DNA of 64,000 nucleotides from an uncultured Bacteroidales bacterium (lineage in GTDB: Bacteria; Bacteroidota; Bacteroidia; Bacteroidales; VadinHA17): positions 1,960,564-2,024,563 of the forward strand of contig OW818650.1 of NCBI GenBank assembly GCA_942492865.1, written 5' to 3'. How positions within the stretch are numbered: position 1 is the stretch's first letter; each line of letters starts with the position of its first letter. Shown here piece after piece: positions 5,365 to 60,561 of this stretch. The position numbers and the translations under genes were made by a program. Under the pieces are notes generated by a model. The model was not told where the DNA came from. It was given only the letters and a program-made list of their open reading frames with translations, and did not search any database.

Positions 5365-6018
5365 ATGATAAGAACACAGGGGATAACCAAGTCTTACGGC
5401 GAATTAAAAGTACTGAAAGGGATTGACATAGAGATTAAAGAGAAAGAAGTCGTGTCAATAGTTGGTGCAAGCGGAGCCGGAAAAACCACTCTTCTTCAAA
5501 TAATAGGAACCCTGGATAAACCAGATACAGGTTCTGTTCTGTATAACGGTTCGGACATAAGCAGGATGAAAGGGAAATCAATTGCTGCATTTCGTAACAG
5601 GAATATCGGGTTTGTTTTTCAGTTTCATCAGCTGCTGCCTGAGTTCACTGCCCTTGAAAATGTATGCATACCCGCATTTATAGCTGGTAAAAGCAAAGCA
5701 GAAGCTGAGGCAAGGGCAGAAGAATTACTTGGGTTCCTTAATCTTAGTAACAGGCTTGATCATAAACCTTCTGAACTAAGCGGAGGTGAACAGCAAAGGG
5801 TAGCTGTGGCGAGGGCGCTTGTCAATAATCCCACGGTTATTCTTGCCGATGAACCGTCAGGTAACCTTGATACTGAAAACAAGAATGAACTTCATAAACT
5901 TTTCTTCAAACTGCGGGATTCATTCGGACAGACAATAATTATAGTAACACACGACCGTCAACTGGCTGATATGTCGGACCGTATACTGCAGATCAGGGAT
6001 GGGCAGATTGTAGATTAA
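5365..6018 (+). CDS. lolD: ABC transporter ATP-binding protein, LolD/FtsE-like
   Basis: Walker [10 protein letters not shown], signature [10 protein letters not shown] and Walker [12 protein letters not shown] are present. The listed 5338 start is TTG, and ATG 5365 ([12 protein letters not shown]) gives the canonical N-terminus. Confidence 0.85.
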
Positions 6019-6039
6019 TCAGAGCTTCAGACTATGGTT

Positions 6040-7398
6040 TCATCTTTCAGTCAGATCGTATGACAGGCCAAGCAGCATAGATACATTGCTGCCGAGATAA
6101 GGATTCCCGAGTTCCCAGCCTTTTGTCTTTCCTGTCAATTGTAATATTCCCGAGAAATTATCAGAGATAAGATACTTTGTTTTAATTCCCATTGAACCAC
6201 CTGAAATCTTTTTACTGCTGTAAAAAGATTCCGGTTGATTCCAGAAATTACAATTGATATCAAAACTGGTGTTGCGGAATGCTTTCATAGAATAAATTCC
6301 AAGTCCTGCTCCAAATCCGGTTTCATCTTTGCTGCTATATCTGTGAGCATTGATAACAAACCCGCGATTTCTGTACCGGACCGGAACATGCACAGCAATA
6401 TCATTACCAAAATAAACCGGGGCATACCGGGTGAAAAAATTAAAATCTAAATTTTCCGAGATTTTGATCCTGTCGATAAAAAATATTGCAGGATTCAGGA
6501 AATTAAGCAGCGAAAGTTTTTTCTGGGCTATCAGGAAATCACGTCCTTCAACCGAAAGATCTGAGAACCCTATTCTCCGGTTTACCCCTTCACCTCCCGG
6601 GAACGGATCCCTTGAAGTAAAAGGAAGATCAGGGTTGAACATATCGTACACCCATGCAGTAAGATCCGATCCTGTATAATCCCTTTCCACAGGGTTTGTG
6701 CTCTCATCAGGCGGTGCCAGGATCTTTACTGAATCGCTTGCTGCACTTGTCGAAAATCTGAAATAATCAAAAACATAATAAGCATTATAAAGAAGAAGTG
6801 CAGATCGTGTCATGCTCTTTTTCTTATAAAAATCATTAATGCTGATGTTTTCATTCAGGAGAATTTCATAATGAACACCGGCAACATAAGAATTTAGTAA
6901 CTGATCAATATCCGTATATTTAAGATCATCAAGTATCAGGTCTGAAATCCCGTAAACAGTTCCATCCCACCTGCTGAACATCCAGTTACCGTTTTTTGAA
7001 GAAATCTTTTTAACACCAATTGCAGAGCGATGGAATTCTTCATGTCCCCAAACACCCAGAGGAATCGGAAGCTCACTGCCATACTTCGAAAATCCCAGGC
7101 TTAAAGCATATTTGAAAAGGTTGTTTGCTGACTTTCTGATTTTGGTATTTTGTTTATCACCGGTTGCAAAAAGCAAATCACCAAGCTCGTCTATGCCCCA
7201 GAATCCTAACTCATACATTCCATAAGACAAGTTGAGAGCCTGGCTCATTGATGGATAATTGTACGGCAAAGTGCCGTTTTGGGGGAAGTCTGCCAAAGGA
7301 ATATTAAGGTTGAACTTATAGATTGTATTGTCCTGGGCAGAAAGGGATTGTAGCTGGAAAAGAATTAATAAAATTCCTGAGTAAAATTTAATTTTCAT
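6040..7398 (-). CDS. Secreted hypothetical protein with HExxH motif
   Basis: Signal peptide MKIKFYSGILLILFQLQSLSAQ and a single HEEFH motif (WGHEEFHRS). The C-terminal third alternates residues in a beta-strand-like way. No family recognised. Confidence 0.5.
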   Translation of the reverse strand: MKIKFYSGILLILFQLQSLSAQDNTIYKFNLNIPLADFPQNGTLPYNYPSMSQALNLSYGMYELGFWGIDELGDLLFATGDKQNTKIRKSANNLFKYALSLGFSKYGSELPIPLGVWGHEEFHRSAIGVKKISSKNGNWMFSRWDGTVYGISDLILDDLKYTDIDQLLNSYVAGVHYEILLNENISINDFYKKKSMTRSALLLYNAYYVFDYFRFSTSAASDSVKILAPPDESTNPVERDYTGSDLTAWVYDMFNPDLPFTSRDPFPGGEGVNRRIGFSDLSVEGRDFLIAQKKLSLLNFLNPAIFFIDRIKISENLDFNFFTRYAPVYFGNDIAVHVPVRYRNRGFVINAHRYSSKDETGFGAGLGIYSMKAFRNTSFDINCNFWNQPESFYSSKKISGGSMGIKTKYLISDNFSGILQLTGKTKGWELGNPYLGSNVSMLLGLSYDLTER

Positions 7399-20363: not shown

Positions 20364-20715
20364 ATGATATAATAAAGCGATTCTTTACCAGATTAAGAAA
20401 TTCCGGTCTGCCTCCTGACTTCCGACGAAATCAAAATTTAGTATGGTTGAAATTTTCAATTATTACCTCATGTAGGGGAGAAATTCCCCTCCTTGGAGGG
20501 GTTAGGGGTGTAGCCGTCAACCTAAGGGTTTGGGGATGTATTTATATTATTGATATTGTGAATTATATGCGATATAGTCTCCCCTCCTTTGCCAAAAGGA
20601 GGGGTGGCCGGGCTACAATTTCACTTTTGTGTAAAAAGGTCTTTCCCGGCCGGGGTGGTTAGATAAAATTAAATTGTAACTTCTCTCTATGAAAGGCACC
20701 AACCTTCATACATAT

Positions 20716-21075
20716 TAATTACAACCTCTTTTACATTCATGGTGGACACGATGGTGAGATGTCATGCGGTGCATATCAATTACAACCTCTTTTAAGTTCA
20801 TGGTAAACATGATTGTGGGATCCCTTGCTGCGATTACAAATTGCAATCTCTTTAAAGTTCCTGGTGAACGCGATAATGAGATCCCTTGCTTCGTATATTA
20901 ATTGCAACCTCCTTTAACATTCATGGTGAATGCGATTATGAGATCCCTTGCTATGCATATTAATTACAACCTCTTTTAAATTCATGGTAAACATGATTGT
21001 GGGATCCCTTGCTGCGATTACAAATTGCAATCTCTTTAAAGTTCCTGGTGAACGCGATAATGAGATCCCTTGCTG
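20716..21075 (+). repeat. Tandem array of six ~61-bp units (consensus about GAGATCCCTTGCTGCGATTACAAnTTGCAACCTCTTTAAAGTTCATGGTGAACGCGATAAT)
   Basis: The CATGGT/CCTGGT landmark recurs at 20738, 20799, 20860, 20922, 20983 and 21044 (period 61-62). Units 2-3 are repeated as units 5-6. Confidence 0.9.
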
Positions 21076-21300
21076 CGCTGCGGGATGACATGCGCTTTTT
21101 GGGGTTATGGGGTGAAAAAGTGGCGATCCGCTACATAGTTCTTTATTGAATGATCGTTCCGGATCGCCACTTTTTCACCCTCTCAACCACCTGTGCAGCT
21201 GTCATTTCGAAGCGATAGCGAGAAATCTCACTATAACAGGCAGGACTTTTTAAGTGAACCTCTTCAACATTCATGGTGAACACGACAGTGAGATCCCTTG
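20857..21300 (+). repeat. Copy 1 of a ~444-bp near-identical direct repeat
   Basis: The same string recurs at 21391-21835 with only about three differences that I can see (ataatgag/ataataag, cctcctttaac/cctcttttaac, caccctctc/cacccctctc). Confidence 0.9.
21062..21229 (+). repeat. Nested double-hairpin element (copy A)
   Basis: Outer imperfect inverted repeat GAGATCCCTTGCTGCGCTGCGGGATGACA (21062-21090) pairs with TGTCATTTCGAAGCGATAGCGAGAAATCTC (21200-21229). Inner perfect 20-bp inverted repeat GGTGAAAAAGTGGCGATCCG (21111-21130) pairs with CGGATCGCCACTTTTTCACC (21160-21179). Confidence 0.9.
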
Positions 21301-21390
21301 CTTCGCATATTAATTGCATCCTCCTTTAACATTCATTGTTAAGGCGACAGTGAGATTCCAATCCTGGTTTCATATTACGACCTCCTTAAA

Positions 21391-21835
21391 GTTCCTGGTG
21401 AACGCGATAATAAGATCCCTTGCTTCGTATATTAATTGCAACCTCTTTTAACATTCATGGTGAATGCGATTATGAGATCCCTTGCTATGCATATTAATTA
21501 CAACCTCTTTTAAATTCATGGTAAACATGATTGTGGGATCCCTTGCTGCGATTACAAATTGCAATCTCTTTAAAGTTCCTGGTGAACGCGATAATGAGAT
21601 CCCTTGCTGCGCTGCGGGATGACATGCGCTTTTTGGGGTTATGGGGTGAAAAAGTGGCGATCCGCTACATAGTTCTTTATTGAATGATCGTTCCGGATCG
21701 CCACTTTTTCACCCCTCTCAACCACCTGTGCAGCTGTCATTTCGAAGCGATAGCGAGAAATCTCACTATAACAGGCAGGACTTTTTAAGTGAACCTCTTC
21801 AACATTCATGGTGAACACGACAGTGAGATCCCTTG
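21391..21835 (+). repeat. Copy 2 of the ~444-bp near-identical direct repeat
   Basis: See copy 1. The offset is 534-535 bp. Confidence 0.9.
21596..21765 (+). repeat. Nested double-hairpin element (copy B, inside duplicate 2)
   Basis: Same sequence as copy A apart from one extra C after the inner stem. Confidence 0.9.
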
Positions 21836-25811: not shown

Positions 25812-28800
25812 ATGAAAAGGTCATTATTTCAGAAGTACATTCTTCTGTGTTTGCTTAACGTCTTTTCTTTACTTCTTTCGGCTCAGATACCGACCCCATT
25901 TACAGTTACAGGTAGTGGCTCATATTGCGTGGGGTCTGGTGGATTAGCTGTCGGTCTTGATAATTCTCAAGCAGATGTCCTCTATACCCTTTACCGGGAC
26001 GGAACAGCTCAACCGGATCCTGTTCCCGGTAGTGGTTCATCTATCTCCTTCGGAAACCAACTTTTCGGGACCTATACCGTGATCGGAGTAAATGGGGATG
26101 GAACTTCCGGAATGAATGGCAGTGCTGTTATAATTGAAAATCCTATTCCTCCCGCTCCCTCAGGCAGCGCAATACAGACCTTCTGCTCGGGCGCTTTGCC
26201 GACGGTGACCAATCTCACCGTAACCGGAACTGGCATCAGATGGTATGATGCCTTAACCGGTGGAAACCTTCTTACTTCTTCAGCAGCGCTGGTCAACGGA
26301 TCACATTATTTTGCAAGTCAGACTGTGGATGGATGCGAAAGTAATCTCAGGCTCGATGTAACCGCAGTTGTAAATACAACGCCTCCTGCTCCGACTGGGG
26401 TCTCATCACAAACTTTCTGCTCGGGCGCTTTGCCGACGGTGACCAATCTCGCCGTAACCGGAACTGGCATCAGATGGTATGATGCCTTAACCGGGGGAAA
26501 CCTTCTTGCTTCCTCAACAGCGCTGGTCAACGGATCTCATTATTTTGCAAGTCAGACTGTGGATGGATGCGAAAGTAATCTCAGGCTCGATATAACTGCA
26601 ATTGTAAACACAACTCCTTCCGCTCCCGCTGGCAGCGCAATACAGACCTTCTGCTCGGGCGCTTTGCCGACGGTGACCAATCTCGCCGCAACAGGAACTG
26701 GTATCAGATGGTATGATGCCTTAACCGGTGGAAACCTTCTTGCTTCTTCTACAGCGCTGGTCAACGGATCTCATTATTTTGCAAGTCAGACTGTGGATGG
26801 ATGCGAAAGTAATCTCAGGCTCGATATAACTGCAATTGTAAACACAACTCCTTCCGCTCCCGCTGGCAGCGCAATACAGACCTTCTGCTCGGGCGCTTTG
26901 CCGACGGTGACCAATCTCGCCGCAACAGGAACTGGTATCAGATGGTATGATGCCTTAACCGGTGGAAACCTTCTTGCTTCTTCTACAGCGCTGGTCAACG
27001 GAACTCATTATTTTGCAAGCCAGACTGTGGATGGATGCGAAAGTAATCTCAGGCTCGATGTAACTGCAATTGTAAACACAACTCCTTCCGCTCCCGCAGG
27101 CAGCGCAACACAAACCTTCTGCTCGGGCGCTTTGCCGACGGTGACCAATCTCACCGTAACCGGAACTGGCATCAGATGGTATGATGCCTTAACCGGTGGA
27201 AACCTTCTTACTTCTTCAGCAGCGCTGGTCAACGGATCTCATTATTTTGCAAGCCAGACTGTGGATGGATGCGAAAGTAATCTCAGGCTCGATGTAACCG
27301 CAGTTGTAAATACAACGCCTCCCGCCCCCACTGGAATCTCAACACAGACCTTCTGCTCGGGCGCTTTGCCGACAGTGACCAATCTCGCCGCAACAGGAAC
27401 TGGCATCAGATGGTATGATGCCTTAACCGGGGGAAACCTTCTTGCTTCTTCTACAGCGCTGGTCAACGGAAGTCACTATTTTGCAAGCCAGACTGTGGAT
27501 GGATGCGAAAGTAATCTCAGGCTCGATGTAACTGCAATTGTAAACACAACTCCTTCCGCTCCCGCTGGCAGCGCAATACAGACCTTCTGCTCGGGCGCTT
27601 TGCCGACGGTGACCAATATCGCCGCAACAGGAACTGGTATCAGATGGTATGATGCCTTAACCGGTGGAAACCTTCTTACTTCTTCTACAGCGCTGGTCAA
27701 CGGATCACATTATTTTGCAAGTCAGACTGTGGATGGATGCGAAAGTAATCTCAGGCTCGATATAACTGCAATTGTAAACACAACTCCTTCCGCTCCCGCA
27801 GGCAGCGCAACACAAACCTTCTGCTCGGGCGCTTTGCCGACGGTGACCAATCTCACCGTAACCGGAACTGGCATCAGATGGTATGATGCCTTAACCGGTG
27901 GAAACCTTCTTACTTCTTCAGCAGCGCTGGTCAACGGATCTCATTATTTTGCAAGCCAGACTGTGGATGGATGCGAAAGTAATCTCAGGCTCGATGTAAC
28001 CGCAGTTGTAAATACAACGCCTCCCGCCCCCACTGGAATCTCAACACAGACCTTCTGCTCGGGCGCTTTGCCGACAGTGACCAATCTCGCCGCAACAGGA
28101 ACTAGTATCAGATGGTATGATGCCTTAACCGGGGGAAACCTTCTTGCTTCTTCTACAGCGCTGGTCAACGGATCACATTATTTTGCAAGTCAGACTGTGG
28201 ATGGATGCGAAAGTAATCTCAGGCTCGATGTAACCGCAGTTGTAAATACAACGCCTCCTGCTCCGACTGGGGTCTCATCACAAACTTTCTGCTCGGGCGC
28301 TTTGCCGACGGTGACCAATCTCACCGTAACCGGAACTGGCATCAGATGGTATGATGCCTTAACCGGTGGAAACCTTCTTACTTCTTCAGCAGCGCTGGTC
28401 AACGGAAGTCACTATTTTGCAGGCCAGACTGTGGATGGATGCGAAAGTAATCTCAGGCTCGATGTAACCGCAGTTGTAAATACAACGCCTCCCGCCCCCA
28501 CTGGAATCTCAACACAGACCTTCTGCTCGGGCGCTTTGCCGACAGTGACCAATCTCGCCGCAACAGGAACTAGTATCAGATGGTATGATGCCTTAACCGG
28601 GGGAAACCTTCTTGCTTCTTCTACAGCGCTGGTCAACGGATCACATTATTTTGCAAGTCAGACTGTGAATGGATGCGAAAGTTCATCAAGGCTCAATATA
28701 ACTGCAGTTGTTAACATCACCCCGGTTATTCCCAATCAGACAACAGCAATTTTAACAGGAACAACATTTACCATAACACCTGAAGGAGCCGGTGTCCCGG

Positions 28801-34832: not shown

Positions 34833-34980
34833 GGCTCAGGGCACAGAGCACAGTGCAAAAGGATTCTTCACTAACCACTCACCACTCACGTCTCACTTCT
34901 TAATTCTTCCTCCCTGCACCCTGAGCTCTGAGCTTAACTCTGAAACCCTGAACCACTGAAACCACTGAAACACTGAAACA
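34833..34980 (+). repeat. Heptamer-tract composite element upstream of wza
   Basis: ATGGCTCAGG GCACAGA GCACAGT at the left. Then CACTAAC CACTCAC CACTCAC GTCTCAC, then CCCTGAGCTCTGAGC, then CTGAAAC-type units. It ends 17 nt before the wza ATG. Confidence 0.8.
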
Positions 34981-34996
34981 TTTAAAATAGAATCCA

Positions 34997-40936: not shown

Positions 40937-42199
40937 ATGAAATTTGCCAATATCAGTCTGGGCAGGGATGTTGAAATAGATCCTTCCACCTCAATTAATA
41001 ATGTTGTAATAGGCGATAAGGTCAGAATTGCCAAGCGATGCAGCATATATGGCAGCCCGGAGAACCCGCTGGAGTTGGGACCCAATTCTTATGTTGGTAT
41101 GAACAGCGTGCTTAATGGTTTTTCAGCCAAACTTACCATTGGGAAGAATGTCAGTATATCCCAGTTTGTCAATATAATGGTCGATTCGGGTCCAAATGCC
41201 TCTCCCGGTATGATGAGAATTTTTCCGATAGTCAAAGGGCCGGTAACGATCGGAAATGACAGCTGGATAGGATCCGGTGCAACGATAATGCCGAACGTGA
41301 CTTTAGGTGAGTACTGCGTAGTTGCGGCACACAGCTACGTAAATAAAAGTTTTCCTGCATTTTCGGTTATTGGAGGTTGCCCGGCAAAACTGATCAGGAC
41401 ATTCACAGATGAGGAGAAGGCCACAATGCTTGATGTTGAAAATAAAAGTCTCCCATGTAATTCCAGCAGTTATGAAGACAATTATCTTGATCTGCCATTT
41501 GAAGACGCACTCCGGAAATTCCGTTTCAGAAATCTTTTGACCAAGCTCAGGGAATACCCCCATAAACGAATTATTGAAATAGGCCCCGGGTCCAATCCGC
41601 TGTTCAGTTATTTCAGCGGATTCGAAAGAATGACAATAATTGAGCCTGGTAAAAATTTTGCAAAAATTGTGCGTACACAGATTGGTACAAGATCTGATAT
41701 AACGCTTATCAATGATACAATTGAAAACATATCAGGACAACTCGGGAATGACTCTTATGATTTGGTAATAATCGGAGGTTTTCTGCACGAAATAGACAAT
41801 CCGGATGCAGTCTTAAGTGCAGTGCGGGTTCTCTGTTCTGACGATACAGTTGTTTACACTTATGTGCCTAACGCTCAATCATTCCACCGGATACTTGCTT
41901 TCAAAATGGGACTGATAGAAAATGTTTTTCAGAAATCGGGGCACGATGAGTTATTTAAAAGGCAGAGTGTTTTTGATATTGAGTCTTTCAAAGCATTAAT
42001 GAGAAATCAGGGCTTTAAAGTAATTGATTCCGGGTCATATTTTATTAAACCATTCACCCATGACCAGATGAAAGCAATTATTGATAACCACATTATTGAT
42101 AATTCCTGTCTCGAAGGTCTGGATAAAATGGTTGAGTATCTGCCAGGTATGGGTTCAGAATTATGGTTTAGCTGTAAAAAAGATGATAAAATTTCTTGA
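40937..42199 (+). CDS. Fusion: left-handed beta-helix (hexapeptide) acyltransferase + class I SAM-dependent methyltransferase
   Basis: Residues 1-160 are hexapeptide repeats (IGDKVRIAKRCSIYG.., IGNDSWIGSGATIMPNVTLGEYCVVAAHSYV). Residues 200-420 carry the SAM motif IIEIGPGSNP and the acidic motif LVIIGGFLHEI. Confidence 0.75.
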   Translation: MKFANISLGRDVEIDPSTSINNVVIGDKVRIAKRCSIYGSPENPLELGPNSYVGMNSVLNGFSAKLTIGKNVSISQFVNIMVDSGPNASPGMMRIFPIVKGPVTIGNDSWIGSGATIMPNVTLGEYCVVAAHSYVNKSFPAFSVIGGCPAKLIRTFTDEEKATMLDVENKSLPCNSSSYEDNYLDLPFEDALRKFRFRNLLTKLREYPHKRIIEIGPGSNPLFSYFSGFERMTIIEPGKNFAKIVRTQIGTRSDITLINDTIENISGQLGNDSYDLVIIGGFLHEIDNPDAVLSAVRVLCSDDTVVYTYVPNAQSFHRILAFKMGLIENVFQKSGHDELFKRQSVFDIESFKALMRNQGFKVIDSGSYFIKPFTHDQMKAIIDNHIIDNSCLEGLDKMVEYLPGMGSELWFSCKKDDKIS

Positions 42200-43406
42200 T
42201 CTCAAAGCTGTTAATGATTCTTTCGGAGATGAGCTTTCGGAAGCAGTTAACCGTGTCCTTAAGTCAGGATGGTATCTGCTTGGAAATGAAGTAGGCGATT
42301 TCGAAAAAAGCTATGGGTCTTATATAGGATCAAAGCATTGCATTGGTGTGGCAAATGGTCTGGATGCACTCAGGCTCATTTTCAGAGCCTATATGGAATT
42401 GGAAATGATGAAGGAAGGAGATGAAATCATTGTTCCGGCGAATACTTATATAGCATCCATTCTTGCAATAACTGAAAACCGGTTAAAACCCGTCCTGGTT
42501 GAGCCGCAAATAAATAACTATAATATAGACGTTTCATTAATTGAAAAGAGCATTACTGCCCGCACACGTGCAATTATGGTCGTTCATCTTTACGGCAGGA
42601 CCTGCTGGTCTGAAAACCTGGAGGATATTGCTGCCAGATACAATCTGAAGATAATAGAGGATAATGCACAAGCGGCAGGAGCGATGACGATGGCTCAGAG
42701 CTCAGAGCGCAGAGCGCAGGAGAAGAAGGCACAGGGCACAGGGCACAGAGCTCAGGAGGAAATGGCTCAGAGCTCAGAGCTCAGGGCTCAGGGCAAGAAA
42801 GAGATGACCCTGAAACGAACTGGTTCATTGGGAGATGCAGCCGGTCACAGTTTTTATCCGGGGAAAAATTTAGGTGCCATAGGAGATGGAGGCGGAGTCA
42901 CTACTGATGATGATGAACTTGCTGCGGTTGTAAGATCGCTGGCGAACTATGGTTCTTCAAAGAAGTATGTATTCGAATATCAGGGATTGAATTCAAGGCT
43001 TGACGAGATACAGGCAGCAGCATTAAATGTAAAGTTGCGCAGGCTTGACCATGATAACCAGCGCCGCCGTGAAATCGCTAAATGTTATATTGAAAATATA
43101 AGGAATCAGGGAATAATTTTACCTGAAAATCCAACCTTTGACCTTTCTCATGTATGGCATCTTTTTGTTGTCCGCTCACTGTTCAGAGAACGTTTGCAGA
43201 ATTATCTTATTGAGAACGGGATACAAACGCTGATCCACTACCCTGTACCGCCTCATCAACAACAGGCATATAAGGAGTGGAATGATTTAATATTCCCATT
43301 AACTGAAAAAATTCACCGGGAAGTATTGAGTATGCCGATAAGCCAGGTAATGAATGATAATGAAATGGAGCAGGTTATTAATATTATCAATAAATTCTCC
43401 GTTTAG
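42183..43406 (+). CDS. DegT/DnrJ/EryC1/StrS aminotransferase (FdtB/QdtB-like) carrying a ~39-codon repeat-derived insertion
   Basis: MIKFLDLKAVNDSF.., IIEDNAQAAGA, GSLGDAAGHSFYPGKNLGAIGDGG and ANYGSSKKY..GLNSRLDEIQAA. The listed start 42081 lies inside the previous gene, so ATG 42183 is used. Confidence 0.85.
   Translation: MIKFLDLKAVNDSFGDELSEAVNRVLKSGWYLLGNEVGDFEKSYGSYIGSKHCIGVANGLDALRLIFRAYMELEMMKEGDEIIVPANTYIASILAITENRLKPVLVEPQINNYNIDVSLIEKSITARTRAIMVVHLYGRTCWSENLEDIAARYNLKIIEDNAQAAGAMTMAQSSERRAQEKKAQGTGHRAQEEMAQSSELRAQGKKEMTLKRTGSLGDAAGHSFYPGKNLGAIGDGGGVTTDDDELAAVVRSLANYGSSKKYVFEYQGLNSRLDEIQAAALNVKLRRLDHDNQRRREIAKCYIENIRNQGIILPENPTFDLSHVWHLFVVRSLFRERLQNYLIENGIQTLIHYPVPPHQQQAYKEWNDLIFPLTEKIHREVLSMPISQVMNDNEMEQVINIINKFSV
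42690..42806 (+). repeat. Heptamer-tract element embedded in-frame in the aminotransferase CDS
   Basis: ATGGCTCAGA GCTCAGA GCGCAGA GCGCAGG ... GGCACAG GGCACAG GGCACAG AGCTCAG ... ATGGCTCAGA GCTCAGA GCTCAGG GCTCAGG. It translates as MAQSSERRAQEKKAQGTGHRAQEEMAQSSELRAQGKKE. Confidence 0.85.
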
Positions 43407-49963: not shown

Positions 49964-51099
49964 TGAAGAACAAACCAGGTTATGCTCATCTGCGGGCACT
50001 TGTCTCACAGAATCTGATTAATATTAGAGGATGGAGAACTCCTGACAAGTTCATTGTTATCGAAAGTGACGACTGGGGAAGTATCAGGATGCCATCAAAT
50101 GAGGTTTATTCAAAATTCCTGAAAAAAGGACTGGAACTTACAGGAAGCGACTATAACAGACTTGATTCCCTCGAAAGCAATGATGATCTGATAAACCTGT
50201 ATGAAGTCCTTCACTCGTTCAGGGATTCGCACGGCAATCCCCCTGTGGTTACCGCAAATATGGTTGTAGGTAATCCTGATTTTAAAAAGATAAGGGAGTC
50301 AGATTTCAATGACTATTATTATGAACCGGTTACAGAAACGCTCAGAAGATATGATGGCCGTGAAAAGGTTGAATCTCTCTGGTTGCAGGGAAAGACTGAA
50401 AAGGTCTTCCATCCACAATTTCATGGCCGTGAACACGTCAATGTTGTCAGGTGGATGAGTGCTCTCAGGAAGAAAACACCGGGGATAATGTTCGCATTTG
50501 AAAATGAGACAACATTCTCGGGTGAGGGGGATTATAATTTCATGGAGGTTCTTGATTATAATAGCAGGGCTGACCTTGTAAAAATGAAGGAAAGTCTTGT
50601 TGAAGGACTGAACAATTTTGAAAAAATATTTGGTTTCAGGTCGCAGTCATTCATTCCGCCATGCTATACCTGGGATAGCAATATTGAGGAAACACTTTAT
50701 ATAAACGGGGTAAATTATATCCAGGGACTGGTAATTCAATCAGTACCCACCGGTTCATTCGGGAAGTACACAAAGAAAATTCATTATATGGGAAAGCGGA
50801 ACTCCTGCGGACAGTATTATCTCATCAGGAACTGCTTTTTCGAACCCTCTCTTTCCAAAAAAACTGATCCGGTTGGAGACTGCCTTAACCGTATAAATGT
50901 CGCTTTCAGATGGCATAAACCGGCAATAATTGGCAGTCATCGTATAAACTTTATAGGATCACTAGATGAAAGTAACAGGGATAACAATTTAAGATTACTG
51001 AAAGAGCTTCTTTCCCGGATATTGAAAGAATGGCCCGAAGTCATCTTCATTACTTCAGATCAGCTTGGTGAAATGATGGCGGGGGAGCGGAGAGCGTAA
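49963..51099 (+). CDS. Uncharacterised protein, paralogue of 62693..63802 (possible divergent NodB-like deacetylase)
   Basis: Shares IESDDWGSIRMPS, NPDFKKIR, FHGREH, RNCFFEP and AFRWHKPAIIGSHRINF with the second copy. The stop codon TAA (51097-51099) lies inside the first GCGTAAA heptamer of the downstream element. Confidence 0.6.
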   Translation: MKNKPGYAHLRALVSQNLINIRGWRTPDKFIVIESDDWGSIRMPSNEVYSKFLKKGLELTGSDYNRLDSLESNDDLINLYEVLHSFRDSHGNPPVVTANMVVGNPDFKKIRESDFNDYYYEPVTETLRRYDGREKVESLWLQGKTEKVFHPQFHGREHVNVVRWMSALRKKTPGIMFAFENETTFSGEGDYNFMEVLDYNSRADLVKMKESLVEGLNNFEKIFGFRSQSFIPPCYTWDSNIEETLYINGVNYIQGLVIQSVPTGSFGKYTKKIHYMGKRNSCGQYYLIRNCFFEPSLSKKTDPVGDCLNRINVAFRWHKPAIIGSHRINFIGSLDESNRDNNLRLLKELLSRILKEWPEVIFITSDQLGEMMAGERRA

Positions 51100-51628
51100 A
51101 GCGGAGAGCGTAAAGCGTAAAGCGTAAAGCGTAAAGAGGAAAGAGGAAAGAGAGTACCCATTATTATAAAGGACAGTGAGTAAGATTGAGAGTCATAAAG
51201 ATTTAATTGTTTATCAAAAGGCGTACAAGCTGGCAATGGAGATTTTTGAAATATCCAAAAGTTTTCCGAAAGAGGAAAAATATTCACTGACAGACCAAAT
51301 TAGAAGATCATCGAGATCTGTGACTTCATGCCTGGCTGAATCATGGGCAAAGAGAAGGTATGAAAAAGCATTTGCTAACAAACTTACAGACTCACTGGGT
51401 GAAGAAAATGAAACAGAAGTCTGGCTTGATTATTCAAAAGACTGCAAATATATTACTGATGCGGAACATGTCAACTTTATGAATGAATATTTAGAGGTCC
51501 GTAAAATACTTATATCTATGATCAATAACCTGGATAAGTGGTGCAATAATTAATTTCTCCATTCTCTCCTCTTTTTTCTTTCTTTACGCTATACGCTAAA
51601 CGCTCTACGCTCACCTCTCATCGCTTCA
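51087..51628 (+). mobile_element. IVS-like cassette: four-helix-bundle gene bracketed by heptamer-built imperfect inverted repeats
   Basis: Left arm 51087-51154: GCGGAGA GCGTAAA GCGGAGA (GCGTAAA)x4 (GAGGAAA)x2 GAGAG. Right arm 51556-51628: CTCTCCTCTTTTTTCTTTCTTTACGCTATACGCTAAACGCTCTACGCTC followed by ACCTCTCATCGCT. The arms are about 75-80 percent reverse-complementary over ~45 nt. Confidence 0.4.
51176..51553 (+). CDS. Four-helix-bundle protein (23S rRNA intervening-sequence protein family, PF05635-like)
   Basis: HKDLIVYQKAYKLAMEIFEISKSFPKEEKYSLTDQIRRSSRSVTSCLAESWAKRRY...EVWLDYSKDCKYI is the family hallmark. GTG start as listed. Confidence 0.85.
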   Translation: MSKIESHKDLIVYQKAYKLAMEIFEISKSFPKEEKYSLTDQIRRSSRSVTSCLAESWAKRRYEKAFANKLTDSLGEENETEVWLDYSKDCKYITDAEHVNFMNEYLEVRKILISMINNLDKWCNN

Positions 51629-51631
51629 TAA

Positions 51632-52783
51632 ATGCAATCTGAAAAAATAAACACAGATCCCATAAAGATCCTCCTAACCGGAGACTTCTGTCCCCACAAC
51701 CGGATTGAGAAACTGGCTCTTAAAGAAGACTTCGGAGCAATCTTCAATGATTTCATTGATGTGTTTCAGGGGAATGATCTGAATATTACTGACCTGGAGT
51801 GCCCTTTGACAACATCGGAAACAGCAAGACCAAAAACGGGTCCCCATCAGAAGGCTCATCCCGATTGTATTAATATCCTGAAATATGCAGGGATTAACCT
51901 TGCTGCGATGGCAAATAATCATATCATGGATTATGATAACAATGGTATTCAGGATACAATTGATCTTTGCAAAAGAGCAGAAATTAATACGGTTGGTGTG
52001 GGGCAATCTCTGGAAGCTGCTTCAAAACCTTTTTCAGCAAATATAAAGGGGAAAAGATTTGCAATACTGAATTATGCTGATAACGAGTTCCTGTCAACTC
52101 CGGACGGATCATTTACATGTAATCCATTGGATCAGGTCCGCTTGTTTTATGATATCAAAAATGCCAGGCAAACCAATGATTTTCTGATAATAATCGTTCA
52201 TGCCGGGAATGAGTTTTTTGAATTGCCATCACCCCGGACAAAGAGGTTATACAGGTATATTGCTGATCTCGGTGCTGATGTGGTAATTGCCCATCACACA
52301 CATGCCTGGTCGGGATATGAAATATATGATTCAAAACCAATCTTCTACGGATTGGGAAACTTTATCTATGACTGGCCCGGAAAATTGAATTCAAGGTGGA
52401 ACCAGGGTTATGTTGTGAGGCTTAAAGTATCTGATAGAACTGACTTCGAAATTATCCCAATTAAACAATGCAATGAGATTCCGGGAGTTTTTCATCTCAA
52501 TTCAGAGGAGATTGGGGGCTTTTTAAATGAGATGGATCGTCTCAATAAAATAATTGCCGATGACGATCATCTGGAAACTGAATTTCAGAAATACTGTAAG
52601 TCAGTCCAGCCAATGTATGAAGCATTCATTGAACCAAATTTTGGCAAAAAAATTGCATCACTAAGAAAAAGAGGATTATTTCCTAAACTAATGTCCAAAA
52701 GAAAACGCCTTCTTCTGTTAAATATCACACGCTGTGAATCTCATCGTGATGTTCTTCAAAGAATGCTTAAACAATATGAATAA
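51632..52783 (+). CDS. CapA-family (PGA_cap) metallophosphatase-fold protein
   Basis: ILLTGDFCP...ECPLT...NLAAMANNHIMDYDNNGIQDTIDLC...GVG and VHAGNEF...VIAHHTHAWSGYE match the CapA/PGA_cap pattern. Confidence 0.75.
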   Translation: MQSEKINTDPIKILLTGDFCPHNRIEKLALKEDFGAIFNDFIDVFQGNDLNITDLECPLTTSETARPKTGPHQKAHPDCINILKYAGINLAAMANNHIMDYDNNGIQDTIDLCKRAEINTVGVGQSLEAASKPFSANIKGKRFAILNYADNEFLSTPDGSFTCNPLDQVRLFYDIKNARQTNDFLIIIVHAGNEFFELPSPRTKRLYRYIADLGADVVIAHHTHAWSGYEIYDSKPIFYGLGNFIYDWPGKLNSRWNQGYVVRLKVSDRTDFEIIPIKQCNEIPGVFHLNSEEIGGFLNEMDRLNKIIADDDHLETEFQKYCKSVQPMYEAFIEPNFGKKIASLRKRGLFPKLMSKRKRLLLLNITRCESHRDVLQRMLKQYE

Positions 52784-52784
52784 A

Positions 52785-52927
52785 GCGTAGAGCGTAAAGC
52801 GTAAAGCGTAAAGCGTAAAACGTAAAGCGTAAAGCGTAATGGAAAGAGAATAGAGAAGGTGTATTTGTCTCTACGCTCTACGCTCTACGCTCATCACTCA
52901 CCTCTCATCACTCATCGCTACCCTCTC
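52785..52927 (+). repeat. Cargo-less heptamer hairpin element between capA-like and asnB
   Basis: The left arm runs in strict register from 52785: GCGTAGA (GCGTAAA)x4 ACGTAAA GCGTAAA GCGTAAT GGAAAGA GAATAGA. After a spacer come (CTCTACG)x3 (52869-52889), then TCATCAC TCACCTC TCATCAC TCATCGC up to the asnB ATG. Confidence 0.9.
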
Positions 52928-52929
52928 AT

Positions 52930-54864
52930 ATGTGTGGAATAACCGGATATCTTAATTTAAATCAGCAACCTGTTGATAATTCAGGGCCCATCCTGAAGAT
53001 GCTGAATGTTCAGAAGCACCGGGGACCGGATGATTCAGGGATCAGGGCTTTTAGTCTTACTAAAGGTCAGTCAATTGAAGTTGAGACAGGCGGTCTCCGG
53101 AAAATAGATGGATATTTTGAAGGTATTCTGGGTTTTAACAGGCTCAGCATACTGGACCTCTCGGCTAACGGGCACCAGCCTATGGAGAGTCCCGATAAAA
53201 GAGTACTACTGGTCCTGAATGGTGAAATATACAATGCATTCGATTTTAAAAATGAGCTTAAAGAATGGGGATATTCCTTTAAAAGCACTTCCGATACGGA
53301 GATCGTACTTGCACTTTATCTCAGATATGGGTTTGACGGATTGCTTGAGCGTCTTAACGGAATGTTTGCAATTGTAATAGCAGATCTCGGCCGGAATGAG
53401 CTCTTTATTACGCGCGACAGATTTGGCATTAAACCCATGTACTATATCTCAACAGGGACAAGGCTGGCATTCTCCTCTGAAATTAAAAGCTTTAAGTATC
53501 TTGAAAATTTTACTTTCCGTCTCGATGAAGACCAGCTCGATGAATTTCTTCTCTTCCGGAATAACCTTTCAGATACATTGTACCGCGATGTTCTCTCTCT
53601 TACCCCCGGGTATTATTTAAATTACAGTCCTAAGAACGGCCTGTTGAAGAAAAGGTACTTTAATATTAACGATTACATGCGGTCAGGTGAAGCCACAGGC
53701 GACATTGAATCCTTCACGGTCACGCTTGAAAAAACGCTGGCTCAAAGTGTTAAAAGTCAGCTAATGAGCGATGTAAAGCTGGGATGCCAGCTTTCAGGTG
53801 GAATAGACTCGTCTTTGGTTACATGGCTCGCTAACCGTAATAATGGTGGAAATAACTTTGAGGCCGTTTCTATAATTTTCAATGATAAACGATTCAGTGA
53901 AGAGAGATATATCGATATTGTTACTGACAAACTTGAAATTCCTTCACATAAGTTTCTGCTGGATCCGGGTTATTATTTTGAAAATTTTGAACGTGCTACC
54001 TGGCATTTTGAGGCGCCTCTTAATCATCCTAATACAATTGCCATATATAAATTGTCGCAGCGGGCAAAGGAATATGTGACTGTACTTCTGAGCGGGGAAG
54101 GCGCTGATGAGGTATTTGGTGGCTATGAAAGATTTTATCAGTTAGCCTATCCATTCAGGATGAGGAAGTTGCTCAGTGTAGTCAAAAAATATGCCATACA
54201 CCCTGATGGATTTACTGATTACTTTGACCAGACTTCAAGGGCAATAATGGCCACATCGTTCATGATCCCTTCCCTGGCAGCGAAGCTTAGGGATGGATTC
54301 AGCAAAGAAAGAGCGACATCAGGCCGCAGAACTTTGTACATGTCACTGAGTGGTTCCCTTTTTGATAAGCAGGTAAAATATGAGATAAACTCCTATCTGC
54401 CCGACCTGCTTCTCAGACAGGATAAGATGTCGATGGCACATTCAATAGAGAACCGTGTTCCTTTTCTTGATAATACAGTCGTTGAAACTGCATTCACCAT
54501 TCCTGAAAACCTTCTGCTTCTCAGAAAAAGCGCCGAGGGGTCCAATACAGAAAAGTATCTTCTTAAGAAAATGACTTCAAAGATCTTTGGAAATGACTTC
54601 GCTTTCAGAAATAAAATGGGGTTCGGAATTCCGGTTCGTGAGTTCCTTATGGATAGAAGATTTTCGGTATTTCTTAATGATAAAGTGATCCCTGGGATAA
54701 AAAGACGAGGGATATTTAATTACAAACTGGCCTCGGAATGGTTCTCAAAAATAGGAACCCTGAAGTATTTCGAACTAGATGCATTATGGGTGATGGTTTC
54801 ATTTGAAGTATGGGCTTCATTATACCTTGACAATAATTATGAAAATAGCAATTCACAATACTAA
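52930..54864 (+). CDS. asnB: Asparagine synthase (glutamine-hydrolysing) family amidotransferase
   Basis: N-terminal MCGITGY (Ntn Cys2) and the synthetase-domain PP-loop LSGGIDSS. 644 aa. Confidence 0.9.
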   Translation: MCGITGYLNLNQQPVDNSGPILKMLNVQKHRGPDDSGIRAFSLTKGQSIEVETGGLRKIDGYFEGILGFNRLSILDLSANGHQPMESPDKRVLLVLNGEIYNAFDFKNELKEWGYSFKSTSDTEIVLALYLRYGFDGLLERLNGMFAIVIADLGRNELFITRDRFGIKPMYYISTGTRLAFSSEIKSFKYLENFTFRLDEDQLDEFLLFRNNLSDTLYRDVLSLTPGYYLNYSPKNGLLKKRYFNINDYMRSGEATGDIESFTVTLEKTLAQSVKSQLMSDVKLGCQLSGGIDSSLVTWLANRNNGGNNFEAVSIIFNDKRFSEERYIDIVTDKLEIPSHKFLLDPGYYFENFERATWHFEAPLNHPNTIAIYKLSQRAKEYVTVLLSGEGADEVFGGYERFYQLAYPFRMRKLLSVVKKYAIHPDGFTDYFDQTSRAIMATSFMIPSLAAKLRDGFSKERATSGRRTLYMSLSGSLFDKQVKYEINSYLPDLLLRQDKMSMAHSIENRVPFLDNTVVETAFTIPENLLLLRKSAEGSNTEKYLLKKMTSKIFGNDFAFRNKMGFGIPVREFLMDRRFSVFLNDKVIPGIKRRGIFNYKLASEWFSKIGTLKYFELDALWVMVSFEVWASLYLDNNYENSNSQY

Positions 54865-55861
54865 GGGTTTCTTCTGCGATCGCTGGATCCCATATTGTCA
54901 GGAAAATAATGTTGATTACAGAATTGTGGATTGCTACAGTTCGGATATAATGCAGCAAATATCTGACTGTGATATTCTTATGTGGCATTTCAACCATAAA
55001 AGCCCAAAGGCAAGCAAGTTTGCCAAACAGCTGCTTTACTCAGTAGAAGCTTGCGGTAAAAAGGTATTTCCTGATTTTAATACTGTCTGGCATTTTGATG
55101 ATAAAGTGGGACAAAAGTATCTGCTCGAATCGTTAGGAGCCCCGCTGGCACCTTCTTATGTATTCTACGACAAAAAGGAAGCACTTGAATGGGCTGGAAA
55201 TACATCCTTCCCAAAAGTTTTCAAGTTACGCAATGGGGCCGGGTCTGATAATGTGAAACTGGTCAGATCAAAAAAAGAAACAGTAAGGATTATCAATAAG
55301 GCCTTCGGACGAGGATTCAGACAATATGAGGGATGGATTAATCTGAAGGAGAGATACAGGAAGTACAGGCTTGGAAAAACCACCTCATGGAATGTGATGA
55401 AGGGAGTTTTGAGGCTTTTCCATAAAACAGAATATGCAAGGGTTACAGGCAAAGAAATCGGATATGCCTATTTTCAGGACTTTATTCCGGACAACGATCA
55501 TGATATCCGGGTTATAGTAATCGGCAACAAGGCATTTGCAATAAAAAGAATGGTACGTGATAATGATTTCAGGGCTTCAGGAAGCGGAATGATACTTTAC
55601 GATAAGGAGCTTTTTGATGACGATACTATCCGTTTATCATTTGAGATCTCTGAAAAGCTTGGATCTCAGAGCATGGCGTATGATTTTGTTTTTCTGAACG
55701 GCAAACCCCTGATCGTTGAGATAAGCTATGGATTTGCAATGCATGGTTATGATCCATGCCCCGGTTACTGGGACCGTAATCTGGTGTGGCATGCCGGTAA
55801 ATTCAATCCTTATGGATGGATGGTTGAGGACATTTTAAGAAGCGTTGAGAAGAAAGCGTAA
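54839..55861 (+). CDS. ATP-grasp domain protein
   Basis: FPKVFKLRNGAGSDNVKLVRSKKE and YFQDFIPDNDHDIRVIVIGNKAFAIKRMVRDNDFRASGSG fit an ATP-grasp fold. ATG 54839 (MKIAIHN) is preferred to 54803. The stop TAA (55859-55861) lies inside the first GCGTAAA heptamer. Confidence 0.6.
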   Translation: MKIAIHNTKGFFCDRWIPYCQENNVDYRIVDCYSSDIMQQISDCDILMWHFNHKSPKASKFAKQLLYSVEACGKKVFPDFNTVWHFDDKVGQKYLLESLGAPLAPSYVFYDKKEALEWAGNTSFPKVFKLRNGAGSDNVKLVRSKKETVRIINKAFGRGFRQYEGWINLKERYRKYRLGKTTSWNVMKGVLRLFHKTEYARVTGKEIGYAYFQDFIPDNDHDIRVIVIGNKAFAIKRMVRDNDFRASGSGMILYDKELFDDDTIRLSFEISEKLGSQSMAYDFVFLNGKPLIVEISYGFAMHGYDPCPGYWDRNLVWHAGKFNPYGWMVEDILRSVEKKA

Positions 55862-55977
55862 AGCGTAGAGCGTAGAGCGGAAAGAATAAGCGTAGAGCGT
55901 AGAGCGTAAAGCGTAGAGAGTAGAGAGTAATTTTTCTGAGCCCTGAGCTCTGAGCCCTGAGCCCTGAGCCCTGAGCC
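55856..55977 (+). repeat. Heptamer-tract composite element (GCGTARA tract followed by CTGAGCY tract)
   Basis: GCGTAAA GCGTAGA GCGTAGA GCGGAAA GAATAA GCGTAGA GCGTAGA GCGTAAA GCGTAGA GAGTAGA GAGTAAT, a TTTT spacer, then CTGAGCC CTGAGCT (CTGAGCC)x4. Confidence 0.9.
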
Positions 55978-55997
55978 AAAGTGAATATATAAACAAG

Positions 55998-57083
55998 ATG
56001 CAGAAGGTAAAAGTATGTCTGGTAATTCCGTCACTACAGGCAGGAGGGATGGAAAGGGTAATGTCAGAGCTTGCATGGCACTTTTCTTCAAAGCAGAAAA
56101 TTGAAATACATCTTGTCCTTTATGGAATATCACGGGAGATCTTTTACCCCGTCCCTGAAACTGTAATAATTCATAAACCTGCATTCACCTTCAATAATGA
56201 CAGGCGATTTTACAGTACTGTACGAACTCTCTTTTATCTGCGAGGGATCATAAAAAAACTAAAGCCCTACAGTATTCTTAGTTTCGGTGAATACTGGAAC
56301 AGCTACCTTCTTCTTGCATTGCTGGGATTGAATTCACGGGTATTTGTATCAGACAGGTGTCAGCCGGATAAAAGCCTGGGCAAATTTCATGACCTGCTTC
56401 GGAAAATATTGTATCGTAAATCAGCCGGGATAATAGTACAGACATCCGCGGCAAAGGAGATCTACCAGGCAATGATCTCTAATGAGAACATACAAGTCAT
56501 TGGCAATCCCATCAGAAGTATTTTAACCGGAGGCAGTAATGCTGGACGGGAAAATATCGTGCTGACTGTGGGAAGACTTATAATGTCAAAGCATCATGAT
56601 AAGCTTATCGAACTGTTTTTGAAGATCTCAAAACCAGGTTGGAAGCTGGTCATTGTCGGGTATGATCATCTTAAACAGGAGGTGTCACTTAAACTGAAGA
56701 AAATAATCGAAGAGAATAATGCCGGCGACACGGTAATTCTTGCCGGAAAACAGAAAAATACCGATGAATACTACCTTAAAAGCAGGATATTTGCTTTTAC
56801 CTCAAGCTCAGAAGGTTTCCCCAATGTCATCGGCGAGGCTATGTCGGCCGGCTTACCTGTCGTTTCCTTTGATTGCATCGCCGGCCCTTCAGAGATGATA
56901 GCAGATAATATAAATGGATTTTTGATACCGTTATTCGATTTTGATCTTTTTCAAAAAAAACTGGAATACCTGATGGATAATGATGAGATTAGATTTAAAA
57001 TGGGGGACAAAGCAAAAGATGATATCAAAAAATTCTCAATTGAGCGAATCGGAGAGCAGTATCTTAAAGTTCTCCTTAGTTAA
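55998..57083 (+). CDS. Family 4 glycosyltransferase
   Basis: VCLVIPSLQAGGMERV at the N-terminus and the EX7E region SSSEGFPNVIGEAMSAGLPVVSFDC. Confidence 0.85.
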   Translation: MQKVKVCLVIPSLQAGGMERVMSELAWHFSSKQKIEIHLVLYGISREIFYPVPETVIIHKPAFTFNNDRRFYSTVRTLFYLRGIIKKLKPYSILSFGEYWNSYLLLALLGLNSRVFVSDRCQPDKSLGKFHDLLRKILYRKSAGIIVQTSAAKEIYQAMISNENIQVIGNPIRSILTGGSNAGRENIVLTVGRLIMSKHHDKLIELFLKISKPGWKLVIVGYDHLKQEVSLKLKKIIEENNAGDTVILAGKQKNTDEYYLKSRIFAFTSSSEGFPNVIGEAMSAGLPVVSFDCIAGPSEMIADNINGFLIPLFDFDLFQKKLEYLMDNDEIRFKMGDKAKDDIKKFSIERIGEQYLKVLLS

Positions 57084-60430: not shown

Positions 60431-60450
60431 AACTGATCTTAGTAAGGCAC

Positions 60451-60544
60451 GATTTCGGATTTCGGATTTCGGATTGATTCACCATTAGCATTCCAATCCG
60501 CAATCCACCTTCCGCAATCCGCAATTACAGGATTTCGGATTTTT
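60451..60544 (+). repeat. Heptamer hairpin element (GATTTCG / CAATCCG tracts)
   Basis: (GATTTCG)x3 GATTGAT at 60451-60478. CAATCCG CAATCCA CCTTCCG CAATCCG CAATTAC at 60494-60528. GATTTCG GATTTTT at 60531-60544. The tracts are near-complementary with one mismatch per heptad. Confidence 0.9.
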
Positions 60545-60561
60545 TGAGCAGTAAAAAATTC

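Follow-up and report, generated by a model that had tools for sequence, protein, structure and literature searches.

Small four-helix-bundle (4HB) proteins of the S23p/Avd type are already known from two settings, namely the S23p open reading frames (ORFs) carried in 23S rRNA intervening sequences (IVSs) and the Avd proteins of diversity-generating retroelements (DGRs). In Coxiella, the 23S IVS is closed by a 28-bp terminal stem that is cut by RNase III in mid-stem, and tandem GACAGAT heptamers of strain-variable number lie directly 5′ of the S23p ATG (PMC4990558). Heptamer arrays are likewise known from Bacteroidetes, cyanobacteria, Beggiatoaceae and Xanthomonas, among them the TAACTGA-type arrays (MacGregor 2015, PMC4679880) and the G-rich heptamers of Xanthomonas and Nostoc (PMC4692102). 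Here, we analysed a stretch of 64,000 nucleotides from an uncultured Bacteroidales bacterium (contig OW818650.1, positions 1,960,564–2,024,563; hereafter the window) and describe a cassette of about 0.54 kb in which a 4HB ORF (PF05635, S23p/Avd-like) lies in the loop of a long hairpin. It is flanked by two co-directional genes of an operon for polysaccharide biosynthesis and occupies their junction. For PF05635 genes outside rRNA that are flanked by tandem-repeat hairpins, or for IVS-type cassettes in mRNA operons, no prior description was found in openly searchable full text.

The cassette shares several features with the ORF-bearing 23S IVSs of Leptospira, Coxiella and the Xanthomonas/Brucella-type S23p. 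In both cases, terminal inverted repeats form a stem whose loop contains the ORF of a PF05635 protein, the element lies within the host transcript and an own promoter is not detected, while the existing ORF-less IVSs (PMC4990558) are paralleled by ORF-less hairpins in our material. In contrast, the host of the IVS is 23S rRNA, whereas that of the cassette is an operon with protein-coding flanks, and Rfam gave no rRNA match over positions 50800–56200. The IVS stem is a unique sequence of 28 bp, while the cassette arms are long tandem-repeat arrays. Furthermore, the Coxiella S23p gene is decaying and probably untranslated, while the cassette protein is under strong purifying selection. As it lies outside rRNA, the cassette does not, strictly speaking, fall into the rRNA-IVS class. 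In architecture, it is the mRNA-operon counterpart of the ORF-bearing 23S IVSs; it would work like an IVS, and its genomic layout resembles that of repetitive extragenic palindromes and their hairpin doublets (REP/REPIN) with the associated RAYT gene.

The left (5′) arm (51085–51154, + strand) is composed of G/purine-rich tandem heptamers, (GCGGAGA/GCGTAAA) ×7 followed by (GAGGAAA) ×2–3 and GAGAG, and was recovered in a tandem-repeat search with a period of 7, 6.3 copies and 89% matches. It is separated by a short, AT-rich leader (51155–51175, +) from the 4HB gene (51176–51553, +), which has a GTG start and 125 codons. The inner arm boundary motif AAGAGAGTA is found again in two related loci, L001 and L086. 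The right (3′) arm (51556–51628, +) consists of C/pyrimidine-rich nested arrays complementary to the left arm, in the order CTCTCCTCTTTTTTCTTTC, TTTACGC/TATACGC/TAAACGC/TCTACGC and CACCTCTCATCGCT, whereby the inner CTCTCCTCTTTTTTCTTTC is complementary to the GAGGAAA block and the outer TTTACGC/TCTACGC units to GCGTAAA. Built from GCGTAAA, GCGGAGA and GAGGAAA heptamers and their complements, the arms span 62–70 nt and form an inverted repeat of 62 nt with 73% complementarity (51093–51154/51564–51625), including a 38-nt core at 82%. The initial annotation had described heptamer inverted repeats of about 45 nt bracketing the gene; the bracketing repeats stand, while their length had been underestimated. 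The GCGTAAAGCGTAAA pattern, with at most two mismatches, occurs 23 times in the window compared with 0.19 expected occurrences. When the RNA of positions 51075–51640 was folded, the arms formed the closing helix, as the proposed stem would have it, with a minimum free energy (MFE) of −156.7 kcal/mol compared with −125.3 ± 6.4 kcal/mol for shuffled sequences (z = −4.92).

The left arm reaches into the upstream reading frame and the right arm ends just short of the downstream one, in agreement with the initial annotation. The TAA stop of the upstream gene (51097–51099) lies inside the first GCGTAAA unit of the left arm, so that the final residues of the upstream protein (…MMAGERRA) and its stop are array-encoded, and the repetition of GCGTAAA gives TAA in all three frames. 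On the other side, the downstream ATG is located at 51632, 3 nt beyond the end of the right arm at 51628. A scan for sigma-70 promoters and intrinsic terminators inside the cassette, which excludes Bacteroidota promoters, gave nothing above the shuffle expectation, and the leader contains no conserved promoter or Shine–Dalgarno sequence. Rfam assigned no family to the arms and hairpins, the sole match being a chance tmRNA (E 0.77), and PADLOC returned no defence-system match for the cassette.

The encoded protein clearly belongs to the family proposed initially for this 125-codon ORF, with an E-value of 4.1e-32 and 111 bits against PF05635 (curated cutoff 33.8) and 101.7 bits against TIGR02436, 'four helix bundle protein' (cutoff 24). 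The sole identical database product, P0012, has 105 aa and corresponds to a start at the later internal ATG 51236. However, homologues open with MSKIES..., with an ATG at the codon equivalent to GTG 51176, and conserve the first 20 residues; therefore, GTG 51176 is the true start. In a model of modest confidence, computed with AlphaFold2 from a shallow alignment (predicted local distance difference test score, pLDDT, 67), helices are predicted for residues 7–27, 38–58, 63–89 and 95–117. The best Foldseek matches of this model are BT_0352 (2RLD) and XCC0516 (2GSC), with template-modelling (TM) scores of 0.71–0.82, and Avd (4DWL) is matched as well. 2RLD (8.8e-12) and 2GSC were also matched by phmmer, and both are deposited with five chains; XCC0516 has been stated to be a pentamer (PMC4990558). 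By analogy with Avd and XCC0516, the conserved 4HB protein is probably a pentameric nucleic-acid binder. Compared with homologues, the ratio of nonsynonymous to synonymous divergence (dN/dS) is 0.03–0.09 at dS from 0.5 to saturation. The protein is thus under strong purifying selection and is no decaying passenger.

The same layout was found around related genes. Metagenomic relatives of the 4HB protein number in the thousands, and the best 120 represent separate 90% clusters that are 81–89% identical. A scan of one genome per species gave 584 relatives, of which 80 loci were retained for comparison; these come from Bacteroidales, Flavobacteriia, Thermodesulfobacteriota, Cloacimonadota, Acidobacteria, Chloroflexi, Planctomycetes, WOR-3 and others, covering more than 10 phyla. 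An inverted-repeat score was computed between the 150-nt flanks of each gene, with 15 as the threshold. For 82 4HB genes, the median score was 15.5 and 57% reached 15, compared with a median of 8.0 and 1.7% for 177 other genes of the same loci (Mann–Whitney p = 2e-25). The proposed IVS-type stem-plus-ORF layout in an mRNA is thus supported, and it is a trait of the gene family and not a peculiarity of one locus. For 81 of 85 genes, Tandem Repeats Finder placed arrays of period 5–9 no more than 200 nt away, and 55 genes have them on both sides. Almost all upstream and most downstream neighbours are transcribed in the same direction as the 4HB gene; the neighbours fall into 156 Pfam families, among which enzymes of nucleotide-sugar and polysaccharide metabolism are enriched. 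The cassette of the window is therefore one instance of a widespread class of elements, with a gene enclosed in a repeat hairpin, that occurs in many phyla.

The repeat unit depends on the lineage, with GCGTAAA, GGTGAGA, AGTAGGC, GCAGTG and GAGAAGGG as examples, and the left and right units covary between lineages. The similarity of the right unit to the reverse complement of the left unit is 0.83, compared with 0.64 ± 0.02 for permuted loci, and none of 500 permutations reached 0.83. In addition, the arms show a fixed polarity with respect to transcription: in all 84 4HB loci, the 100 nt upstream of the gene contain more G than C, and the 5′ half is the more G-rich one in 20 of 22 ORF-less array spacers (p = 1e-4). 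Distant PF05635 paralogues (about 30% identity) met by chance in the loci have the same layout with other units in six of six cases, and paralogues sharing one contig carry differing units (L003, L004 and L116). Unit similarity is 0.95 at a protein identity of at least 80% and 0.62 below 50%; over all pairs, repeat units correlate weakly with protein identity (Spearman 0.085, about 1.8 standard deviations), and only the closest pairs clearly share units. Since close proteins share units and divergence erodes this sharing, gene and arms are passed on as one unit, while the arms evolve faster.

One of these paralogue-bearing contigs, L004 (6.4 kb), contains heptamer arrays of differing units in nearly every spacer. 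At 5448–6107, an 85-aa GIY-YIG-like ORF (5597–5854) separates the N-terminal part (5448–5579) of a distant PF05635 paralogue from its C-terminal part (5847–6104), and the whole unit is enclosed by GTTCAAA ×7 and CCTTGAA ×19 arrays.

Comparison of orthologous operons shows that the cassette is gained and lost. In the window, the upstream co-directional neighbour encodes a 379-aa protein without a Pfam match (UP379), and the downstream co-directional genes are, in order, PGA_cap, AsnB, an ATP-grasp protein and a GT1 glycosyltransferase. The operon with two UP379 paralogues, PGA_cap and AsnB is conserved in 29 metagenomic loci. At the UP379–PGA_cap junction, the two genes overlap by ATGA in L093, L101 and L103 and are separated by a plain spacer of 10–146 nt in most other loci, so that about 20 loci are plain or overlapping in total. 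In L084 and L088, the junction holds arrays without a gene, and just four cases have a 4HB cassette there, namely the window, L086 (late stop), L098 (internal stop) and L117. As the junction is mostly plain or ATGA-overlapping in orthologous operons, the cassette is an insertion, and the empty site to be looked for in relatives does exist. In a second operon family, L001 carries a cassette between SDR and PglD, whereas L002 has only a heptamer hairpin at this position and its cassette sits one junction upstream. The suggested selfish or mobile cassette is supported as far as gain, loss and insertion at differing junctions are concerned; the strong purifying selection on the protein had escaped the initial annotation.

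Partial cassettes illustrate how such elements decay. The remnants in L001 (1894–2043) and L117 (2418–2477) consist of the last 10–20 codons of a 4HB ORF plus the right arm; both are 5′-truncated, and the reading frames end in …MINNPSKWC (L001 1918–1962) and …LEVRKMLISMINNPEKWC (L117), each followed by a stop codon. Because these remnants keep the 3′ end of the ORF together with the right arm, ORF-less hairpins can arise by loss of the ORF. Furthermore, 4HB pseudogenes were found in L012, L021, L098 and L086. Two 5′-truncated remnants are too small a number to make a case for retro-mobility or to tell a copying mechanism from chance deletion.

The arms themselves change in length between close relatives. 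In six strain variants (L118–L123; gene at 2001–2375, or at 845–1219 in L123), the protein and the 146-nt upstream spacer are identical, while the downstream array-containing spacers measure 231, 266, 273 or 308 nt, with differences of 7, 35 and 42 nt, i.e., in 7-nt steps. A further pair, L114 and L115, differs by 14 nt in array length. The variation in 3′ arm length is a microsatellite-like polymorphism, and the arms evolve fast by 7-nt slippage.

In our judgement, the arms of this recurrent repeat-hairpin 4HB cassette probably pair in the operon transcript. The cassette would be transcribed by read-through from the host operon, and the arrays would end the upstream reading frame, with stops in all frames, while leaving the downstream start intact. 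In the transcript, the arms would pair into an imperfect helix of about 60–70 bp, looping out the 4HB cistron as a separate RNA domain and drawing the flanking cistrons together. As in rRNA IVSs, the helix would likely serve as a substrate of RNase III or as a structural insulator, so that the host operon could tolerate the insertion. Owing to the G-rich-first polarity, the C-rich arm would be paired once transcribed and not exposed in single-stranded form, on which Rho could otherwise load. The 4HB protein would be made from the looped-out domain. Consistent with pairing in RNA, 58 of 82 loci have a better duplex energy on the sense strand (p = 1e-4).

Several observations weigh against this interpretation. 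The sense preference in duplex energy may stem from base composition, G·U and A·C are equally frequent among the transition mismatches of the arms (120 each), and both the window cassette and an ORF-less hairpin at 52781–52929 fold at least as well in antisense. Because the RNA-level tests disagree, a DNA-level role of the arms is a live rival. About 40% of the related genes have only weak inverted repeats. Arrays without a 4HB gene are also common in the same genomes, at 0.38 per kb elsewhere compared with 2.0 per kb beside the gene, and the association of arrays with the gene could partly reflect where insertions are tolerated. Neither a mobility mechanism nor conserved termini nor a target-site duplication was found; comparison of 51085/51628 with the empty orthologous junctions gave no evident flanking direct repeat, the array ends being too variable to define termini. 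Finally, the copies are old, with synonymous sites diverged to saturated, and as they are anciently diverged there is no sign of recent transposition.

According to the DNA-level rival, which we regard as unlikely on balance, the cassette is a mobile element modelled on REP/REPIN–RAYT, integron attC or IS200/IS605 systems: the arms would be terminal inverted repeats, or single-strand DNA hairpins, for a recombinase encoded elsewhere, with the 4HB gene as passenger or accessory and the RNA stem as incidental. The presence/absence polymorphism at orthologous junctions agrees with it, as do solo derivatives resembling MITEs (miniature transposable elements with inverted repeats), tandem or compound elements, the lack of strand bias in wobble-type mismatches, the antisense folds in the window and the promoterless co-directional cassettes, which recall those of integrons. 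However, no transposase, integrase, other recombinase or reverse transcriptase recurs among 126 neighbour proteins, in the best 25 of the 156 neighbour families of the 80 loci, and in the window no transposase, integrase or reverse transcriptase is encoded up to 5 kb on either side. A conserved terminal sequence is lacking in the arms, whose unit is lineage-specific and varies in copy number by slippage, and the lack of an evident target-site duplication and the ancient divergence of the copies count here as well. The G-rich-first polarity with respect to transcription, which extends to solo arrays, is unexpected for a strand-symmetric DNA element. Three specific versions were rejected. A MITE or a transposon with terminal inverted repeats would have conserved shared termini, whereas the arm units differ between lineages and the arm lengths between strains. 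An integron cassette has a 3′ attC, while here repeats lie on both sides of the ORF, no integrase was found among the near neighbours or in the best 25 families, and only the promoterless co-directional ORF is held in common. REP/REPIN–RAYT systems share with the cassette a single small gene between inverted repeat copies and a repeat that also occurs gene-free in intergenic regions, but the cassette has tandem lineage-specific units instead of a conserved palindrome, and its gene is without a known catalytic motif, matching only PF05635 and bAvd and no Y1 (HUH) transposase.

The remaining alternatives concern the link between gene and repeats. If the heptamer arrays were slippage-made spacer filler spread over the genome, resembling the short tandemly repeated repetitive (STRR) sequences of cyanobacteria, 4HB genes might merely survive or insert there and the hairpin would have no function for the gene. 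The frequent arrays without a 4HB gene in the same contigs and in the window, the reports of heptamer arrays independent of any such gene in Bacteroidetes, cyanobacteria, Beggiatoaceae and Xanthomonas (PMC4679880; PMC4692102), and the genes without a strong inverted repeat are in line with such a coincidence, which we nevertheless consider quite improbable: the units on the two sides of each gene are complementary and covary beyond all permutations, they track the gene lineage and not the genome, arrays are about five times as dense within 200 nt of the gene as elsewhere, the excess of upstream G is without exception, and 23S rRNA IVSs show the same layout. If the gene were simply a normal part of the operon, inherited vertically and serving polysaccharide synthesis, this would account for the purifying selection and for the occurrence of the subfamily mostly in capsule or O-antigen-type loci. 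This explanation is very improbable and was rejected because of the orthologous empty sites: the gene is missing from most orthologous operons, including those with ATGA-coupled neighbours, it occupies differing junctions in homologous operons, and elsewhere it adjoins unrelated housekeeping genes, as reflected in the breadth of neighbour families. In F. columnare, for example, a 4HB gene lies between gmk and nadD (PMC5524665). Finally, the gene could encode the Avd accessory protein of a DGR, with the repeats as its template/variable-region system. Avd (4DWL) is indeed a small basic protein with a homologous four-helix-bundle fold (Foldseek TM about 0.7–0.8), and there are weak matches to bAvd (PF22296, 31.6 bits) and DivGenRetAVD (27.6 bits), but both lie below the curated cutoffs (40 and 80, respectively). 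In addition, a DGR has a reverse transcriptase and paired template and variable repeats, whereas no reverse transcriptase is present in the six flanking genes or in the best 25 neighbour families, and the repeats are 7-nt tandem arrays instead of a template/variable-region pair. Repeat searches of 50900–51800 gave only the heptamer arrays and chance pairs, with no dedicated window-wide search for template/variable repeats. The DGR reading, which we judge extremely improbable, was therefore rejected, as no reverse transcriptase is near and the Avd-model scores fall below cutoff.

Returning to the cassette whose arms pair in the transcript, a further step can be envisaged, although we hold it to be rather doubtful: the pentameric 4HB protein would recognise the repeat unit of its own cassette, as RNA or single-stranded DNA, and promote the maintenance, spread or generation of the arrays, forming a two-component system. 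If true, one class of elements would explain the ORF-bearing rRNA IVSs, the heptamer/STRR arrays, long a riddle, that occur in cyanobacteria, Bacteroidota, Beggiatoaceae and Xanthomonas, as well as the function of the non-DGR relatives of Avd. The remnants in L001 and L117, together with the kinship of the protein with a reverse-transcriptase cofactor, may leave room for RNA-mediated spread.

The STRR heptamer arrays of cyanobacteria were reportedly described by Mazel et al. in 1990. Heptamer simple-sequence arrays in general resemble the cassette arms in that tandem 7-nt units lie in intergenic spacers, often beside start codons, and vary in copy number between strains; several unit types per genome, some copies inside ORFs, a sporadic distribution between close relatives and the occurrence in Bacteroidetes are shared as well. 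Intercistronic RNase III sites and stabiliser hairpins, as in the early region of phage T7, are long imperfect helices that separate or stabilise segments of a transcript. These are local and enclose no gene, whereas the predicted cassette helix encloses the 4HB gene. The published heptamer arrays (PMC4679880, PMC4692102) have no link to a gene family, while the cassette arrays are complementary pairs of fixed polarity that enclose a PF05635 gene.

The window also contains heptamer arrays without a 4HB gene. It carries a long polysaccharide-biosynthesis cluster on the + strand, with glycosyltransferases, DegT, FdtA, PGA_cap, AsnB and others, and also encodes type IX secretion system (T9SS) PorP/SprF and CHU_C domains, which mark the genome as being of Bacteroidota type, in line with the homologues in Bacteroidales metagenome-assembled genomes. 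At the PGA_cap–AsnB junction, an ORF-less ('solo') hairpin (52781–52929, +) comprises GCGTAAA ×8, a short loop, CTCTACG ×3 and then CTCATCA units, and thus belongs to the same unit family as the cassette. Its MFE is −40.4 (z −2.7) in sense and −55.1 (z −4.9) in antisense, and it is missing from about 15 orthologous operons, where the spacers are plain and 6–111 nt long. An array-filled junction (55853–55977, +) has GCGTAGA/GCGTAAA ×11 followed by CTGAGCC ×6 (z −3.2), so that the G-rich array precedes the C-rich one and the two are weakly complementary. A solo hairpin of a different unit (60448–60545, +) consists of GATTTCG ×3.6, a loop and CAATCCG ×4.6 (z −2.4), and an array block just 5′ of the first gene of the polysaccharide cluster (34836–34985, +) contains GGCACAG-type, CACTCAC, CTGAGCT and AACACTGA units with weak hairpin potential (z −1.8). 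In all four of these ORF-less arrays or hairpins, the more G-rich part comes first and the hairpin potential is modest.

A GGCTCAG/GGCACAG heptamer array also lies in frame (42690–42796) within the ORF of a DegT/DnrJ-type sugar aminotransferase (42183–43406, +). It adds about 42 residues (query residues 169–210) compared with 3 in the close homologue 5U1Z, directly before the KRxGxLGD...FYPGKNLG segment. The ORF-less heptamer arrays at four other spacers, the in-frame DegT array and the absence of a DGR context had escaped the initial annotation. Other repeats of the window are of a different kind. The non-coding region 20700–21730 contains two blocks of six 61-nt tandem repeats (20717–21077 and 21250–21612), which can alternatively be described as 184-nt units. 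A near-perfect hairpin of about 75 nt comes after each block (21109–21183 and 21643–21717), and Rfam gave only spurious miRNA-hairpin matches here. At 26148–28716, eleven tandem 234-nt (78-aa) repeats lie in a 1900-aa ORF with CHU_C-associated Ig-like domains, a repetitive surface-protein gene without relation to the cassette.

The arrays also have practical consequences. They break short-read assemblies, and many metagenomic homologues lie on contigs about 1 kb long. The CRISPR-associated domains listed in a large clustering screen include '23S rRNA IVP' (PMC10910872). The flanking tandem-repeat arrays may have been picked up as CRISPR-like in that screen, and such arrays may pass for CRISPR-like repeats in automated screens in general.

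For the biology of this family, the cassette physically joins three puzzles, namely the origin of 23S IVSs, the role of the abundant Avd/S23p-like proteins outside DGRs, and the 7-nt arrays of intergenic spacers. In the locus described here and in about 90 relatives, these three features are combined in a recurrent cassette that is gained and lost in ordinary operons, which makes all three testable in culturable Bacteroidota.

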